Shown here piece after piece: positions 28,379 through 32,578 of a DNA stretch of 51,084 bases (positions are counted from its first letter, which is position 1; every line of letters starts with the position of its first letter). This DNA is from Nitrospirae bacterium GWC2_56_14 (GTDB lineage Bacteria > Nitrospirota > UBA9217), in assembly GCA_001803705.1 (NCBI GenBank), contig MHDY01000230.1, positions 502 through 51,585 on the forward strand, in the 5' to 3' direction. The notes under the pieces were generated by a model. That model made no database searches. It was not told the DNA's origin and worked only from the letters and a program-made list of their open reading frames with translations. The position numbers and the translations under genes are program-made.

Positions 28379-31300
28379 ATGAATAAGAGTCCTGTAGTGT
28401 ATGCCGGTCTGGCGCTTCTCGCCGCGCTGGCACTCTTCGGTGTTCCTTCGGCGGCGGTCGCCCATATTGATGTGAGCCTCAAGGCCGCATCAGGGCCCGC
28501 GGGCGGCACTACGCCGTACAGCACAAAGATGACCTGCGGCGGCTGCCATTTTAATTGCGCAACCGGTGCTTATGACGACAACAGGGCGACCTGGTGCCAG
28601 GACCAGGCCGCTCAAAAAGATTGTTCCGTACCGGGCAGCTGCCCTGACTATGCATCCTATGAAACAAATGATACGGCGCATTCCCAGGGGTATGCGGACT
28701 CATCAGGATTAATAACCTTCGCGACCGCCACGACAAAATCCCCGCTGCATGGGGCCTCTGTCGGGTTCCATAGTCAGCATGGGAGAAACGAAGAGATGAC
28801 GCCGGCCCAGAGGACCATCTGGGGCGCTCCCGCCTTTGTCAGCTCTCCCGGCATGTTCGGAAGGTATTGTATGCCTTCGAACCGCCAGTTGGTGCGGCAG
28901 GATTTCGATGCCGCGAACCTCGATCCCGCTGGAAGGCCTCGCGAGATGGAGATGGGCGTGTCCAACTGGGCAAAGTCCTGCGGCGTATGTCATGCCGGCG
29001 GCGGCCAGATGGAATACGACCGGAGCATGAATGAGTACGGCGCAACGAGCCCCACGGGCGACCGCTATACGTGGTTGATCCCCACCGCTTCCGGATCAGG
29101 GGCGCCGGTGAACGGCGCGTTAGTCGACGTCTCCACCCTGGCGGGCAATGCCAAAGACCGGCAGCTGACCGGCGCCAATAAGGCGGAAGTCGACTGTCTT
29201 CTGTGCCACATGAGCGAGATGAGGCCCGCCGCGGCGTATTATAAGAATACGCTGGGCTGCAGCGACAGCAATATGACGGGTCCGGCCGACAACCCGAATT
29301 GCGGAGCTCAAAAGGCCGTTTTCATGGACATGAAGACGGGGACCCCCATGATGATGGCGGACAGTCGCTTCGATTTCTCTATCGGCGGTTTATATGACTC
29401 CTACAACAGGAACATCGCCATATCCTATGGTTACTTCGGTGCGGCTGCATCTGCGGGCATCGGCGCAGGGATCGATCTGGCGACCGGCGCGGTCACGAAC
29501 GTGCCCACATTGCTCGCCGGGTCCAAGATCGGCAAGCCGACCAGCGGAAGCTGCGCCCAGTGCCATGCACGGAATGAGGCCGACAATATAGGTCTTCCCG
29601 GCGAGGCACAGGTGTTCGGCGGTATGATCGCCGGGTACGGCAATTTCGTCAGACTAACGCCGTCCGGGGATGCTTTTGACTGGGACAAAATAGCCGCGGA
29701 CGGATCCTGCGCGTCCGACTGCACGAATTCCAGCACCTGGACGGAATTCGGCTGCAAGACCGGTATGGGCAAACGGTCGCAGAAAACCGGGAATGGCAGC
29801 TCGGACCGGTGGGGAAACGGGTTCTGCATGATCTGCGACTCGCAGGATCAATGGGCCACCAATTCCTTCTGCGGACTGCCGTCCGTGCAGAACGCCTGTA
29901 TCGCCGAAACAGAGATCCCGACGTTGATATCCGACAATGATCCCATGAGCCTTATTGATATAACGGCGCAAGGCCCGAGGCCGAAACTCATTCCGGGCAA
30001 GATGCCGGACCTCGATGTGCATGAAGCCGGCGACAAGGGGATCACCTGTTCATCCTGTCATTACACCATGTCGGGAACGATCCCGGCAAGGACCATCAGC
30101 GCGGGCTCTAACGTCTACACCTACCCGTCGGCCACCTTTGTGAAGATGGACCACAATATGGCAAAGGGCTACAGCATGCTCGAAAAGGGCGGGGACGGGT
30201 TTGAAGGCACGGTCTCCTGCGCAAGCTGCCACATCGCCGGAGAAAATCATCATCCCAACGCAGCGGCGCTTGCCGCTCCGATCGCCGGTCATGCCGGCTT
30301 TCCGGCGCTGCATTTCGATAAGATCGATTGCCGGACCTGCCACATCCCGGCTATTTACGCATCGCCCGGCAGGCTGATGTTCAGGGACTGGACCGCAGGC
30401 GCGTACCGCCAGACCGAGGGCAGCAACGGCAATGCCAACCACTTCGAGTTTGCCATGAGCATGCTGGAAGGCGGCATGACGCCCATCCGGACGCTTCCCA
30501 TGTGGATCAGCACACCGGAAGGAACAAAGATCACGCCCATGCAGACCAACTTCCTGCCAATCTGGGCGGGCTCGGTCACGAATCTCTCCGATTCCAAGGT
30601 CAGTTGGTCGCCGGCAAAAACGCGGGACGTTAACGCGGCGGTAGCAGTCGTTTCCGCGGCCAATCCCGCCTTCGGGATCAGGATCAACGGCACCAACGAA
30701 CATCCGGGTTTCCAGGGCTTCCAGCTCACGGACCCGCTGAAGATCGAATCAAAGGCGAAGATCGATGCAGTTGCGGCAGAGCTTGCTTCCGCGCGCACGG
30801 GCGTTGTGGCTGAGCACTCGGTTGTTCGCGACGCACGGATCAACCTCTATCCGTTGTTCTATGACACCTCGCATGGTGTCGTACCTAATGAATATGCGCT
30901 TGGTTCTCCGTCCAGGGGCGGCTGCGTGATGTGCCACTCGACCTCTGCAAAGAACCCGATGACGGGTCAACCCGTCGATCCGACGACGTACAGCGACAAG
31001 TCTGTCGGCTTCTTTGACGGCACCAAGGAAATGCTGCAGAACGGGTTCATGATCATGGCGAGCTATGACTGCGATAACCCGTATATATTCACCCTGATGA
31101 CCACCGGTCAGACCACGACTCTGGCGTCTCCCACGTGCCTCGAGACGACCCCGCCGGAAATGGGCGGCACCGGTCTGTGCGACGGCACCGCAAAAGGAAC
31201 GACCTCCCTGGGAGCGCAGAACGGCACCATGGGTCTGTGCAAGGAAACGATCGGCGGCAAGCTCGCGCAGTCAATGGGCATGCCGGCGGACCCCATGATG

Positions 31301-32578
31301 CGCATGGACGGCGTTGAGTTCATGCAGATGATGGCCGTGCGGGAAGGCGCATCACTCCATAGTTGCAATCCGATGATGCAGATCTTCGGCCTGCCGACGA
31401 ATTGCAACCCCGAGGATTACTACAGCCGCAGCGAGATCAGCCTGTATTTCGCAAAAAGTATGCAGCAGAGCTTCTTTACTCCCAGCGTGGCCGGAGCGGC
31501 CTGGAACGACCCGACCGGCGCGACCACGACTGTGCCGTCGACCCTGGGCAGAGTGTTCGGGGTGTCCACACAGATCAAAAAGAACCCGGGCAATGCGAAC
31601 CACCAGAACGTGTTCGATTTCGGGGCCACCTGCCGCAATCCGCTCGACGGATCGAGGTTCCCCTGCAGCACCGCCATGCCCGGCATGACGAACCTCATCG
31701 ACACCGCGGTGAGCTCCAACCAGATCCTGGGCTACGATGCCGTTCAGTACGCTAAACTGACGAGCCCGGCGACAGCCGGGCTGCAGGTGCCGACGGCGAT
31801 TGTATCGTACGCGAAGAGCGGCCTGACCGTGAACCTGGATGCGTCCGGTTCTGTCTGTCCCAGCGGCAGCTGCGGCTATTCCTGGAACTTCGGCGACAAT
31901 GCCTCCGGAACGGGCGTCACGGCGGCCCATGCCTATGGCGCCGCGGGGACCTACACGGTCACGCTCACCGTATCGGATGCGGTGAGCGCCACGAACGGCG
32001 CAGCGTCGGTCACGTTCGACGTAGCAGCGGCGAACAGTGCGCCGGCGGCAGGATTCACGTCTAACCTGGTGGACTACGGGTCTCCATCCTACAAGACGAG
32101 CCACAACTGGGTGGTGGTGCTCAACGACACGTCAACGGATGAGTCGACGGCTACGCTTGCCATATCCGTGAATTGGGGCGACGGCAGCATAGAACCGCTG
32201 CAAACGGGCGCGGGAAGCAGCTTCTCGCACACGTACGTCAATGCAGGTTTCTACACCATCAGCTACCGGGTGACGGACAACGGCGGCATGAGCGCGACAA
32301 TCACCCAGCCGGTGAAAATAGTGAAGTACCAGGCAGGCGGCAAGGTAACAAGGTCCAACGGCACGACGGCTGTTTCGAGCGTGAAGATGGACCTCAAACA
32401 GGGTGCAGCGGTCGTAAAGACCGTGTACACCAACTACCTGGGGAACTATGCGTTCACGAACCTCAAACCCGGGACGTACACGATCGTGCCGTCCAAAACG
32501 GGCCTCGTATTCGACGTGGTGCCTGATGTGACGGTGGGCGCGGACATCACCACCGCGAACATCTCATCGACCAATTAG
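28379..32578 (+). CDS. Giant secreted octahaem protein with two PKD domains and a CarboxypepD_reg-like C-terminal domain
   Basis: Signal peptide ...ALFGVPSAAVA. Haem motifs CGGCH, CGVCH, CLLCH, CAQCH, CSSCH, CASCH, CRTCH and CVMCH. PKD signatures WNFGDNASGTGVTAAHAYGAAGTYTVTLTVSD (~31795-32020) and VNWGDGS...HTYVNAGFYTISYRVTDNGG (~32040-32320). Terminal beta-sandwich segment GNYAFTNLKPGTYTIVPSKTGLVF (~32330-32540). GGAGAA Shine-Dalgarno sequence upstream. Confidence 0.85.
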   Translation: MNKSPVVYAGLALLAALALFGVPSAAVAHIDVSLKAASGPAGGTTPYSTKMTCGGCHFNCATGAYDDNRATWCQDQAAQKDCSVPGSCPDYASYETNDTAHSQGYADSSGLITFATATTKSPLHGASVGFHSQHGRNEEMTPAQRTIWGAPAFVSSPGMFGRYCMPSNRQLVRQDFDAANLDPAGRPREMEMGVSNWAKSCGVCHAGGGQMEYDRSMNEYGATSPTGDRYTWLIPTASGSGAPVNGALVDVSTLAGNAKDRQLTGANKAEVDCLLCHMSEMRPAAAYYKNTLGCSDSNMTGPADNPNCGAQKAVFMDMKTGTPMMMADSRFDFSIGGLYDSYNRNIAISYGYFGAAASAGIGAGIDLATGAVTNVPTLLAGSKIGKPTSGSCAQCHARNEADNIGLPGEAQVFGGMIAGYGNFVRLTPSGDAFDWDKIAADGSCASDCTNSSTWTEFGCKTGMGKRSQKTGNGSSDRWGNGFCMICDSQDQWATNSFCGLPSVQNACIAETEIPTLISDNDPMSLIDITAQGPRPKLIPGKMPDLDVHEAGDKGITCSSCHYTMSGTIPARTISAGSNVYTYPSATFVKMDHNMAKGYSMLEKGGDGFEGTVSCASCHIAGENHHPNAAALAAPIAGHAGFPALHFDKIDCRTCHIPAIYASPGRLMFRDWTAGAYRQTEGSNGNANHFEFAMSMLEGGMTPIRTLPMWISTPEGTKITPMQTNFLPIWAGSVTNLSDSKVSWSPAKTRDVNAAVAVVSAANPAFGIRINGTNEHPGFQGFQLTDPLKIESKAKIDAVAAELASARTGVVAEHSVVRDARINLYPLFYDTSHGVVPNEYALGSPSRGGCVMCHSTSAKNPMTGQPVDPTTYSDKSVGFFDGTKEMLQNGFMIMASYDCDNPYIFTLMTTGQTTTLASPTCLETTPPEMGGTGLCDGTAKGTTSLGAQNGTMGLCKETIGGKLAQSMGMPADPMMRMDGVEFMQMMAVREGASLHSCNPMMQIFGLPTNCNPEDYYSRSEISLYFAKSMQQSFFTPSVAGAAWNDPTGATTTVPSTLGRVFGVSTQIKKNPGNANHQNVFDFGATCRNPLDGSRFPCSTAMPGMTNLIDTAVSSNQILGYDAVQYAKLTSPATAGLQVPTAIVSYAKSGLTVNLDASGSVCPSGSCGYSWNFGDNASGTGVTAAHAYGAAGTYTVTLTVSDAVSATNGAASVTFDVAAANSAPAAGFTSNLVDYGSPSYKTSHNWVVVLNDTSTDESTATLAISVNWGDGSIEPLQTGAGSSFSHTYVNAGFYTISYRVTDNGGMSATITQPVKIVKYQAGGKVTRSNGTTAVSSVKMDLKQGAAVVKTVYTNYLGNYAFTNLKPGTYTIVPSKTGLVFDVVPDVTVGADITTANISSTN

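Follow-up and report, generated by a model that had tools for sequence, protein, structure and literature searches.

The window analysed here is a 51,084-nt stretch of DNA from Nitrospirae bacterium GWC2_56_14 (assembly GCA_001803705.1, contig MHDY01000230.1, positions 502 to 51,585 of the forward strand), in which the gene at positions 28,379 to 32,578 encodes a 1399-aa multihaem protein. As judged from comparison with homologous genes, this is a cysteine-type (Cys-type) member of a family of octahaem c-type cytochromes that mostly use selenocysteine (Sec; U in sequences) at the position of its Cys164. We consider it rather likely that the product, a ~144-kDa protein exported by the general secretory route, is a chalcogen-dependent enzyme, probably acting on substrates with S-S bonds. 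The Sec/Cys site is visible only in comparison with homologues and was therefore missed in an earlier reading of the same DNA, made by a model from the sequence alone (below, the sequence-only reading).

The homology search returned 58 near-full-length relatives of the window protein. Most of them begin at MAAKN.../LAAKD..., have no signal peptide and contain only seven haem motifs. The DNA of two loci, from Thiovibrio sp. JS02 and from one metagenome contig, was read directly. In both, an upstream open reading frame (ORF) of ~130-170 aa holds the signal peptide and haem 1 and continues in one frame into the annotated gene across a single TGA, located exactly at the Cys164 position (...SSPGMFGKY*PPSNRQLAAK... 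in homologues versus ...SSPGMFGRYC164MPSNRQLVRQ... in the window protein). A search with the N-terminal 170 aa found 24 independent short ORF products, every one ending in ...GM.GR[YF]. Gene callers split most homologues into an ORF of ~165 aa and one of ~1200 aa. As a result of this splitting at UGA, by the Prokaryotic Genome Annotation Pipeline (PGAP) and by metagenome gene callers alike, the family is invisible in current annotation; the source names of homologues are 'hypothetical', 'PKD domain-containing' and 'InlB B-repeat-containing'. The family appears to be undescribed within the open-access literature, where we found nothing earlier beyond the selenoprotein MccSep and a table entry for a selenoprotein of the octahaem tetrathionate reductase (OTR) family, an absence that is no proof.

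Scanning the GTDB species genomes with the invariant GCKTGMGKR block produced 35 loci. The codon at site 164 is TGA in 32 of 36 genes and TGC or TGT in the other four, the window gene included; TAA and TAG do not occur. The TGA position aligns with Cys in 14 sequences, and the flanking motif SSPGM.G[KR][YF]-U-PPSNRQLAAK is conserved. With TGA read as U, 36 proteins were reconstructed; all have a signal peptide and one U or C.

A hairpin, CCGCC-AGUU-GGCGG, is located 15-28 nt 3' of the UGA in all 32 Sec-type genes, one of which has a compensatory version (CCGUC/GACGG). The codons at +4 to +8 that form it (AAC CGC CAG UUG GCG) have a third-position entropy of 0-0.45 bit, as compared with 1.5-1.9 bit for the adjacent invariant Pro, Pro and Ser codons and 0.6-1.6 bit for an invariant control block. 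The hairpin is broken in all four Cys-type genes; in the window gene, GGCGG has become GGTGC, with the substitution A172V. A TGA that alternates with Cys and a selenocysteine insertion sequence (SECIS) downstream of it are the standard criteria for a bacterial selenoprotein gene, and both were found in the family. The combination of the U site with the hairpin CCGCCAGUUGGCGG can be offered as an annotation rule for the family.

One could read the TGA codons instead as genuine stops, of two-gene systems or of pseudogenes, and give Cys164 no special meaning; gene callers and PGAP do annotate two ORFs, the downstream one as 'InlB B-repeat-containing protein'. The downstream products, however, would then have no signal peptide and yet carry seven haem motifs needing periplasmic maturation. 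Frame and protein conservation run through the codon, which is TGA in 32 of 32 cases and Cys-aligned in 14 sequences, and is followed by a hairpin with frozen synonymous sites that is gone in the Cys forms. This explanation is effectively excluded.

In a neighbour-joining tree, the Cys-type genes fall into at least four clades nested among Sec-type genes, which argues that Sec is ancestral. The window protein belongs to a small Cys-type clade, and its nearest relatives (P0005 and P0007) are of the Sec type. A search for tRNA-Sec genes in the window and in the local stretches around the 37 related genes gave none. The natural Cys variant of the window should be expressible in hosts without Sec machinery. 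Positions of the features are collected in Table 1.

Table 1. Features of the octahaem cytochrome gene and its surroundings (positions in the window)
Feature	Positions	Strand	Remark
Divergent porin-cytochrome-like cluster	18348..27517	-	Proposed electron partner
Sigma-54 -24/-12 promoter element TGGCACATGGATTGCT	27961..27976	+	Perfect TGGCAC-N5-TTGCW
5' leader, ~400 nt	27977..28378	+	AAGGAG ribosome-binding site at 28364-28369
Coding sequence, 1399 aa, ATG start	28379..32578	+	Predicted Cys-type member of the octahaem Sec/Cys cytochrome family
Signal peptide of the general secretory type, aa 1-28 (...SAAVA/H29)	28379..28462	+	Read by eye; cleavage site inferred
Haem motif 1 CGGCH, aa 53-57	28535..28549	+	Invariant in the family and superfamily alignment
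Sec/Cys loop SSPGMFGRY-C164-MPSNRQL, aa 155-171	28841..28891	+	Most conserved block of the family; also in sister families
Cys164 codon TGT	28868..28870	+	Position of TGA (predicted selenocysteine) in most homologues
Decayed SECIS remnant CCGCCAGTTGGTGCGG (Sec-type genes: CCGCCAGUUGGCGG)	28871..28900	+	
Haem motif 2 CGVCH, then invariant AGGGQMEYDR	28979..28993	+	37 residues after Cys164
Haem motif 3 CLLCH	29195..29209	+	
Haem motif 4 CAQCH	29552..29566	+	
Invariant block G-C459-KTGMGKR	29750..29776	+	Second free Cys, family-specific
Haem motif 5 CSSCH	30047..30061	+	Inside weak TIGR04315 region, aa 544-680
Haem motif 6 CASCH	30218..30232	+	
Haem motif 7 CRTCH	30329..30343	+	
Haem motif 8 CVMCH	30923..30937	+	
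Two PKD domains, aa ~1135-1313	31781..32317	+	Pfam PKD_4
Prealbumin/CarboxypepD_reg-like beta-sandwich, aa 1321-1393	32339..32557	+	Sub-threshold
Intrinsic terminator: 11-bp stem, 3-nt loop, T-run	32598..32632	+	
13-haem DmsE/MtrA-like periplasmic cytochrome	33406..34731	-	Downstream of the gene; related gene near the target in 18 loci

The sparse distribution of haems described in the sequence-only reading was reproduced: the 1399-aa protein has exactly eight CxxCH motifs (starting at aa 53, 201, 273, 392, 557, 614, 651 and 849), which span aa 53-853. The variants CxxxCH, CxxxxCH, CxxCK and CX11-17CH do not occur in it, and the whole protein contains 40 Cys. The haem domain, of ~117 kDa, amounts to 14.6 kDa of protein for each haem, versus 3.7-7.9 kDa in the four neighbouring cytochromes. 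Multihaem cytochromes above ~7 kDa per haem were all found to be catalytic (PMC7096707), and the value of ~15 kDa per haem thus supports an enzyme rather than a wire. The sequence-only reading had also favoured a redox enzyme; the support for it now comes from evidence outside that reading, the Sec/Cys alternation at residue 164 and the mass per haem. The signal peptide supports export of the window protein, and hydrophobic N-terminal leaders are present in all reconstructed homologues.

Two PKD domains and a CarboxypepD_reg-like module had been proposed for the C terminus. The PKD part is secure (PKD_4, E=3.5e-23, 81.9 bits against a cut-off of 27, in two stretches), and the region aligns with the PKD pair of ColH in the PDB. 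The third module is probably prealbumin/CarboxypepD_reg-like, although its matches are below threshold: CarboxypepD_reg scores 22.3 bits (E=1.7e-4) against a cut-off of 32.3 bits and SdrD_B scores 25.9 bits against 29.7. The extra Cys-rich strings are present as described; they are located in insertions conserved in the Nitrospirota-type clade only. Disulfides are plausible for these clade-specific clusters, whereas for Cys164 that interpretation was wrong.

The complete reconstructed members mostly have eight CxxCH motifs; a few are without the first or have extra C-terminal motifs. Invariant in 32 full-length sequences are the eight haem motifs, the loop G158-M-x-G-[KR]-[YF]-U/C164-x-P-S-N-R-Q-L and the stretch CGVCH-x-GGG-x-x-E-Y-D-R that includes haem motif 2; G-C459-K-T-G-M-G-K-R is invariant in these 32 sequences and in all 58 homologues. 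The C-terminal tails vary. The sequence-only reading had proposed a search for homologues with and without the PKD tail, and the 58 homologues did divide in this way (PKD, 32; InlB B-repeat, 10; CarboxypepD_reg only, 3; no recognised tail domain, 13). As the tails are interchangeable and 13 of 58 members have no recognised one, tethering by Ig-like modules is weakened as a core property of the family. About a dozen homologues (P0005, P0021, P0024, P0026, P0028, P0035, P0037, P0042, P0043 and P0053; L007 and L009) have 3-5 extra C-terminal CxxCH motifs, instead of or besides Ig-like domains. These extra haems may be a fused electron-input module.

Could the protein serve mainly in extracellular electron transfer, as the terminal reductase or the point of contact for minerals or partner cells, with residue 164 used for redox sensing, protection or a structural selenenylsulfide? 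The gene lies close to a porin-cytochrome cluster and has many-haem neighbours, surface proteins typically have Ig-like tails, and some homologues have the additional haems just mentioned. Faint precomputed matches to MtrC/MtrF domain II/IV (PF22113) exist in homologues, with none in the window protein at E<=1. Still, eight haems in ~117 kDa are far too sparse for a wire, and the most conserved blocks of the family are non-haem loops. Costly Sec is kept with its SECIS in 32 of 36 genes, and Sec marks catalytic residues in known selenoproteins. We regard a primarily electron-transferring role as very unlikely.

Only seven His residues outside the haem motifs are strictly invariant (124, 131, 548, 592, 638, 645 and 832) for eight haems, so that one haem may have another sixth ligand or an open site. 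Judging from the alignment, the odd ligand may be Cys459, Met, Lys, His29 or Sec. His29 (28463-28465), the predicted first mature residue after the AVA/H cleavage site, is conserved in 91-97% of sequences and is possibly a haem ligand or an N-terminal metal-binding residue. Cys459 might ligate a haem or act as redox partner of Sec/Cys164. Across the superfamily alignment no Cys was found to co-vary with the U/C site, and Cys459 is confined to the family of the window protein. Haem 2 is the proposed catalytic haem. Two distant relatives, P0224 and P0229, have no haem-2 CxxCH (YGRRH and FGRHY in its place) and no Cys at the site equivalent to 164; this joint loss, in two sequences, is consistent with residue 164 and haem 2 being functionally coupled.

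The AlphaFold2 (AF2) model of aa 1-1135 (28379-31783) is confident overall, with a predicted local distance difference test (pLDDT) score of 80 and a predicted template modelling score (pTM) of 0.87. The pLDDT falls below 50 at aa 125-137, 152-163, 208-211, 461-463 and 592-595, which are the most conserved non-haem motifs. These loops probably line cofactor pockets that a haem-free prediction cannot place.

The statement of the sequence-only reading that the haem-bearing part could not be assigned to a family was essentially right, as no solved structure or curated model matches it. Searches of PDB chains with the window protein (phmmer) and with the family profile matched only in the PKD region; the library holds the MccSep entries 9wt8/9wt9 and the OTR entry 1sp3. 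A PDB chain annotated as 'PKD domain-containing protein' (9wt0 chain a, 1443 aa, accession near the MccSep entries) was matched by the profile via PKD only (E=0.02). In Pfam and NCBIfam the haem core has no match except a weak one over haems 5-7 (aa 544-680), where TIGR04315, the model of OTR, scores 25.5 bits (E=6e-6) and has its cut-off at 375. For OTR, HAO, MccA and OmcA/MtrC-like folds a structural comparison had been suggested. The sole Foldseek hit of the AF2 model in the PDB was OTR 1sp3, a weak one (E=0.019, probability 0.63, 360 columns, TM-score 0.24 on the OTR length), and none of the other folds was matched; the Foldseek library extends to 2026-04-08 and probably does not contain MccSep. 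Direct assignment to OTR, HAO, MccA, NrfA, MtrC or MccSep was rejected, the searches having given PKD plus one weak OTR-model match.

An exhaustive phmmer search of 1.84 billion representatives collected 207 relatives. Among them are sister families of ~700-aa proteins, of cytochrome-b fusions and of PKD-tailed proteins of ~900-1100 aa. These keep eight haem sites and the module H-x-Q-x-G-R-N-E...S-P-G-M-F-G-K-[WYF]-X-...-R-Q-L...C-x-x-C-H-x-G-G-G, where X is Cys, Ser, Asn, Gln or another residue. They match TIGR04315 (OTR) and TIGR04314 (MmcA type) with E-values of 1e-14 to 1e-16, and one member (P0168) matches OcwA (E=8e-4) and, weakly, NrfA and ONR. By these partly transitive sequence links, the family would belong remotely to the OTR/NrfA/OcwA/MmcA-class superfamily of catalytic multihaem cytochromes. 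In the PDB, a profile of the Sec-loop/haem-2 module matched only class-I cytochromes c, spuriously, and no OTR, MccA, NrfA, OcwA or MccSep; a further homology search with it returned mostly fragments, none named as a selenoprotein.

A sister gene, L039 (2659-4740 of its locus, + strand), encodes an octahaem protein of ~690 aa with an in-frame TGA at 2980-2982 (..SNGMFGGW*PPSYRQLAKK..), followed by the same hairpin CCGCCAGTTGGCG. Several other relatives 'start' at LARK, MAKK or LAKK, directly past the U site. Together these observations indicate that Sec use is wider than the family of the window protein and point to related Sec-containing sister families within the OTR-like octahaem superfamily.

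These remote sequence and fold links to OTR, NrfA, ONR and OcwA speak for a second interpretation, in which the protein reduces small anions as do NrfA, OTR and MccA. A substrate such as nitrite, hydroxylamine, sulfite, thiosulfate or tetrathionate would bind directly at an open or unusually ligated haem, and residue 164, with Cys459, would be a second-sphere or metal-ligating pair. Eight haems are also present in OTR and MccA, a linear Cys/Sec-metal site could be built from the two free chalcogen residues, both of them invariant, and the shortage of one invariant distal His would suit such a haem. A Sec-containing OTR-family protein is annotated in GenBank (PMC13188914). On the other hand, the window protein has neither a CxxCK nor a CX15CH motif, its score with the OTR model is 25.5 of the 375 bits needed, MccA, HAO and NrfA were unmatched in the PDB sequence searches with the family, and the Sec-loop/haem-2 profile found no counterpart in solved structures. 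A small-anion reductase thus seems unlikely to us.

We therefore return to a chalcogen-dependent enzyme acting on S-S bonds. In such an enzyme the eight haems would form a wire from the neighbouring porin-cytochrome module to a chalcogen-based active site, which would consist of the loop with Sec/Cys164, of haem 2 close by, and of Cys459, a residue specific to the family. Residue 164 would be the nucleophile attacking the S-S (or Se) substrate, and the covalent intermediate might be resolved by electrons from the haems, as in the polysulfide reductase MccSep. Positioning of the enzyme, at the cell envelope or against a solid substrate, could be the role of the interchangeable Ig-like tails. 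By analogy, polysulfide and elemental sulfur would be the most likely substrates, alongside related S-S compounds, for example tetrathionate.

Members of the family occur in Ca. Sulfobium, Thermodesulfovibrionales and other Nitrospirota, as well as in Desulfobulbaceae, Desulfurivibrionaceae, Desulfocapsa, Desulfurivibrio and Thiovibrio. The family is restricted to sulfur-cycling lineages of Nitrospirota and Desulfobulbales, lineages known for sulfur reduction, disproportionation or sulfide oxidation. Part of this link to sulfur metabolism is described in two recent papers (PMC13510729, PMC12142623). The 'octahaem RS02855' up-regulated in the proteome of Desulfurivibrio dismutans (only 786 aa; PMC12142623) could not be tied to the family and was dropped.

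Several points weigh against the proposed sulfur-reducing function. The AF2 model, to which the putative active-site geometry would have to conform, is haem-free and has pLDDT below 50 in the Sec loop itself, and the substrate is assigned solely by analogy and host ecology. MccSep shows no detectable homology with the family (9wt8/9wt9 unmatched at E<=10, NF040886 at E<=1); its Sec is located past all haems, within a C-terminal Ig-like domain, whereas in the window family the site lies between haems 1 and 2. The U325C variant of MccSep is nearly inactive (PMC13510729), and the natural Cys form may accordingly be slower or tuned differently. Ser, Asn and Gln are tolerated at X in the sister families; the residue is thus not essential for the fold, and other chemistries may exist in the superfamily.

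The reaction could also run in the oxidative direction. Porin-cytochrome modules operate in either direction, and among the hosts are organisms that oxidise sulfide or disproportionate sulfur (Desulfurivibrio, Desulfocapsa, Thiovibrio), disproportionation needing an oxidative branch. A surface or periplasmic Sec/Cys enzyme similar to TsdA or SoxAX would then oxidise sulfide, polysulfide, thiosulfate or S0 and pass electrons inward via the porin-cytochrome module, with the quinone pool or nitrate reduction as their destination; TsdA and SoxAX are His/Cys haem enzymes that oxidise thiosulfate (cited in PMC13510729). Searches of Pfam and NCBIfam, however, detected no Sox- or Tsd-like domains in the window protein, and the characterized Sec-haem precedent is reductive. 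We judge the oxidative direction distinctly improbable.

The location of the reducing enzyme we favour should be considered separately. The tails (PKD, InlB-repeat or prealbumin-like), the Cys-rich insertions and the porin-cytochrome cluster suggest a cell-surface or extracellular location. Against this stand the signal peptide, which has no lipobox Cys, and the window protein as a whole, where no known surface-sorting signal was seen; moreover, MccSep, the one characterized haem selenoenzyme, is periplasmic. A bolder proposal, which we put forward as a speculation with limited chances, is a selenium-dependent multihaem enzyme outside the outer membrane, wired by the porin-cytochrome module and attacking solid S0 or polysulfide at the cell surface. 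In a sub-variant of it, Sec164 would be the axial ligand of haem 2, that is, a natural selenolate-ligated haem. If true, a surface S0 enzyme would be the one, long sought, with which S0 respiration or disproportionation begins in Desulfobulbales and Thermodesulfovibrionia.

The sequence-only reading had described a monocistronic gene with its own sigma-54 promoter and an 11-bp-stem terminator, and the promoter and terminator were confirmed. The promoter element is the single site in the window that matches TGGCAC-N5-TTGCW with zero mismatches; with one mismatch allowed, six matches occur versus 1.7 expected. Sigma-54 sites are located 5' of the target gene in 7 of 36 loci including the window, all in the Nitrospirota-type clade, where we estimate ~0.03 to be expected. 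Expression of the gene is probably sigma-54-dependent. The terminator stem (32598-32622) has 11 pairs, nine of them G-C, and is followed by GTTTTT. The divergent upstream operon and the gene's own terminator fit a monocistronic unit. The leader is unusually long; in related loci the sigma-54 site is located 56-238 nt upstream of the start. A riboswitch in it was rejected, as a scan of 27977-28378 against Rfam gave no match at the gathering score or at E<=1.

The divergent cluster encodes three cytochromes (4-haem, periplasmic; 5-haem, a lipoprotein; 11-haem), a porin-like protein of 686 aa and three further lipoproteins, namely two NHL propellers and a SurA-like peptidyl-prolyl isomerase; a sigma-54-like site precedes it (27714-27729, - strand). 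Across 37 related loci, each of its components adjoins the target gene in 16-27. Porin-cytochrome conduits are not usually accompanied by NHL propellers or by a dedicated chaperone of the SurA-like kind. The longest ORF of the 5-haem cytochrome (24629-25444, - strand) overlaps an NHL gene (25203-26411, - strand) by ~240 nt; the ENA call of 197 aa, which has a lipobox (..GLSGC), points to a true start near 25222.

The neighbours of the target gene most resemble their counterparts in metagenome-assembled genomes of Nitrospirota and Thermodesulfovibrionales. Elsewhere, the window contains housekeeping and signalling genes. The signalling genes (16656-18212, + strand; 36609-44653; 45003-50700) encode two sigma-54 enhancer-binding response regulators, two large PAS histidine kinases, an HD-GYP-type response regulator, CheA/CheW and a methyl-accepting chemotaxis protein, with a bacteriohemerythrin at 35944-36474. 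It is possible that they regulate the two sigma-54 promoters. A 6S/SsrS RNA gene was found at 1712-1891 (+ strand; Rfam RF00013, 90.2 bits, full length).

Among named systems, OTR (Shewanella oneidensis, 1sp3; TIGR04315) shares the eight CxxCH haems. However, its active-site haem is Lys-ligated and it has ~440 aa, whereas the window core of ~1100 aa is 2.5 times larger with large beta-rich insertions, and 1sp3 was found neither by the family profile nor by the Sec-loop/haem-2 profile. The 2026 review of prokaryotic selenoproteins covers ExtKL, a GSU2204-family protein and the GenBank-annotated OTR-family octahaem protein (PMC13188914), and contains nothing resembling the window family. NrfA, ONR and OcwA (Thermincola, 6i5b) are likewise peptide-rich multihaem enzymes, and OcwA, a terminal reductase exposed at the surface, converts small anions as well (PMC7096707). 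Neither the window protein nor the family profile matched them directly, the CxxCK active-site motif of NrfA is absent from the window protein, and these enzymes have no catalytic Sec or Cys loop.

The neighbourhood is similar to those of MtrC/OmcA/MtrF and of the Geobacter porin-cytochrome conduits in having a porin-like barrel with periplasmic and lipoprotein cytochromes. MtrC and OmcA differ in having a lipoprotein signal and 10 haems, arranged in two pentahaem domains (PF22113), at ~7-8 kDa per haem, against eight at ~15 kDa in the window protein. The sulfite reductase MccA of Wolinella combines eight haems and sulfur chemistry with a Cu(I) held by two active-site cysteines. Its diagnostic CX15CH haem motif is absent from the window protein, and the PDB searches gave no sequence match to it. 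MccA is cited in the MccSep paper (ref. 14 in PMC13510729).

The closest functional parallel is MccSep itself (ExtKL, GSU2937-2936 of G. sulfurreducens), a periplasmic tetrameric five-haem selenoprotein that reduces polysulfide (PMC13510729; Mihara et al., Sci Adv 2026). In its structures (PDB 9wt8/9wt9), Sec325 is located in the loop D-G-U-P-T-P-N-R, adjoining haem 2, which is ligated by His/Cys239, and its gene cluster includes the porin ExtI (PMC13510729). The architectures differ: MccSep has five haems in ~450 aa, with all five CxxCH motifs inside a helical cap that takes up ~320 aa at the N terminus, whereas the window family has eight, spread over 800 aa, in a core of ~1100 aa plus tails. 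The likenesses are numerous. Both are exported c-type multihaem proteins in which some lineages have Cys in place of the single Sec, the Cys types being nested inside Sec-type clades. In both, a short SECIS hairpin follows the UGA and gene callers split the gene in two. The loops are similar (G-U-P-T-P-N-R in MccSep, Y-U-P-P-S-N-R in the window family), and a second invariant Cys is present in each (C239 and C459, respectively). Both are distributed over Desulfobacterota and Nitrospirota (Thermodesulfovibrionia), in gene clusters with an outer-membrane porin. Catalysis by haem plus selenocysteine was first demonstrated in 2026 with MccSep; the window family would be a second, architecturally unrelated and much larger case, and a candidate answer to a question left open by the MccSep authors, namely how sulfur-cycling bacteria handle insoluble or extracellular sulfur.

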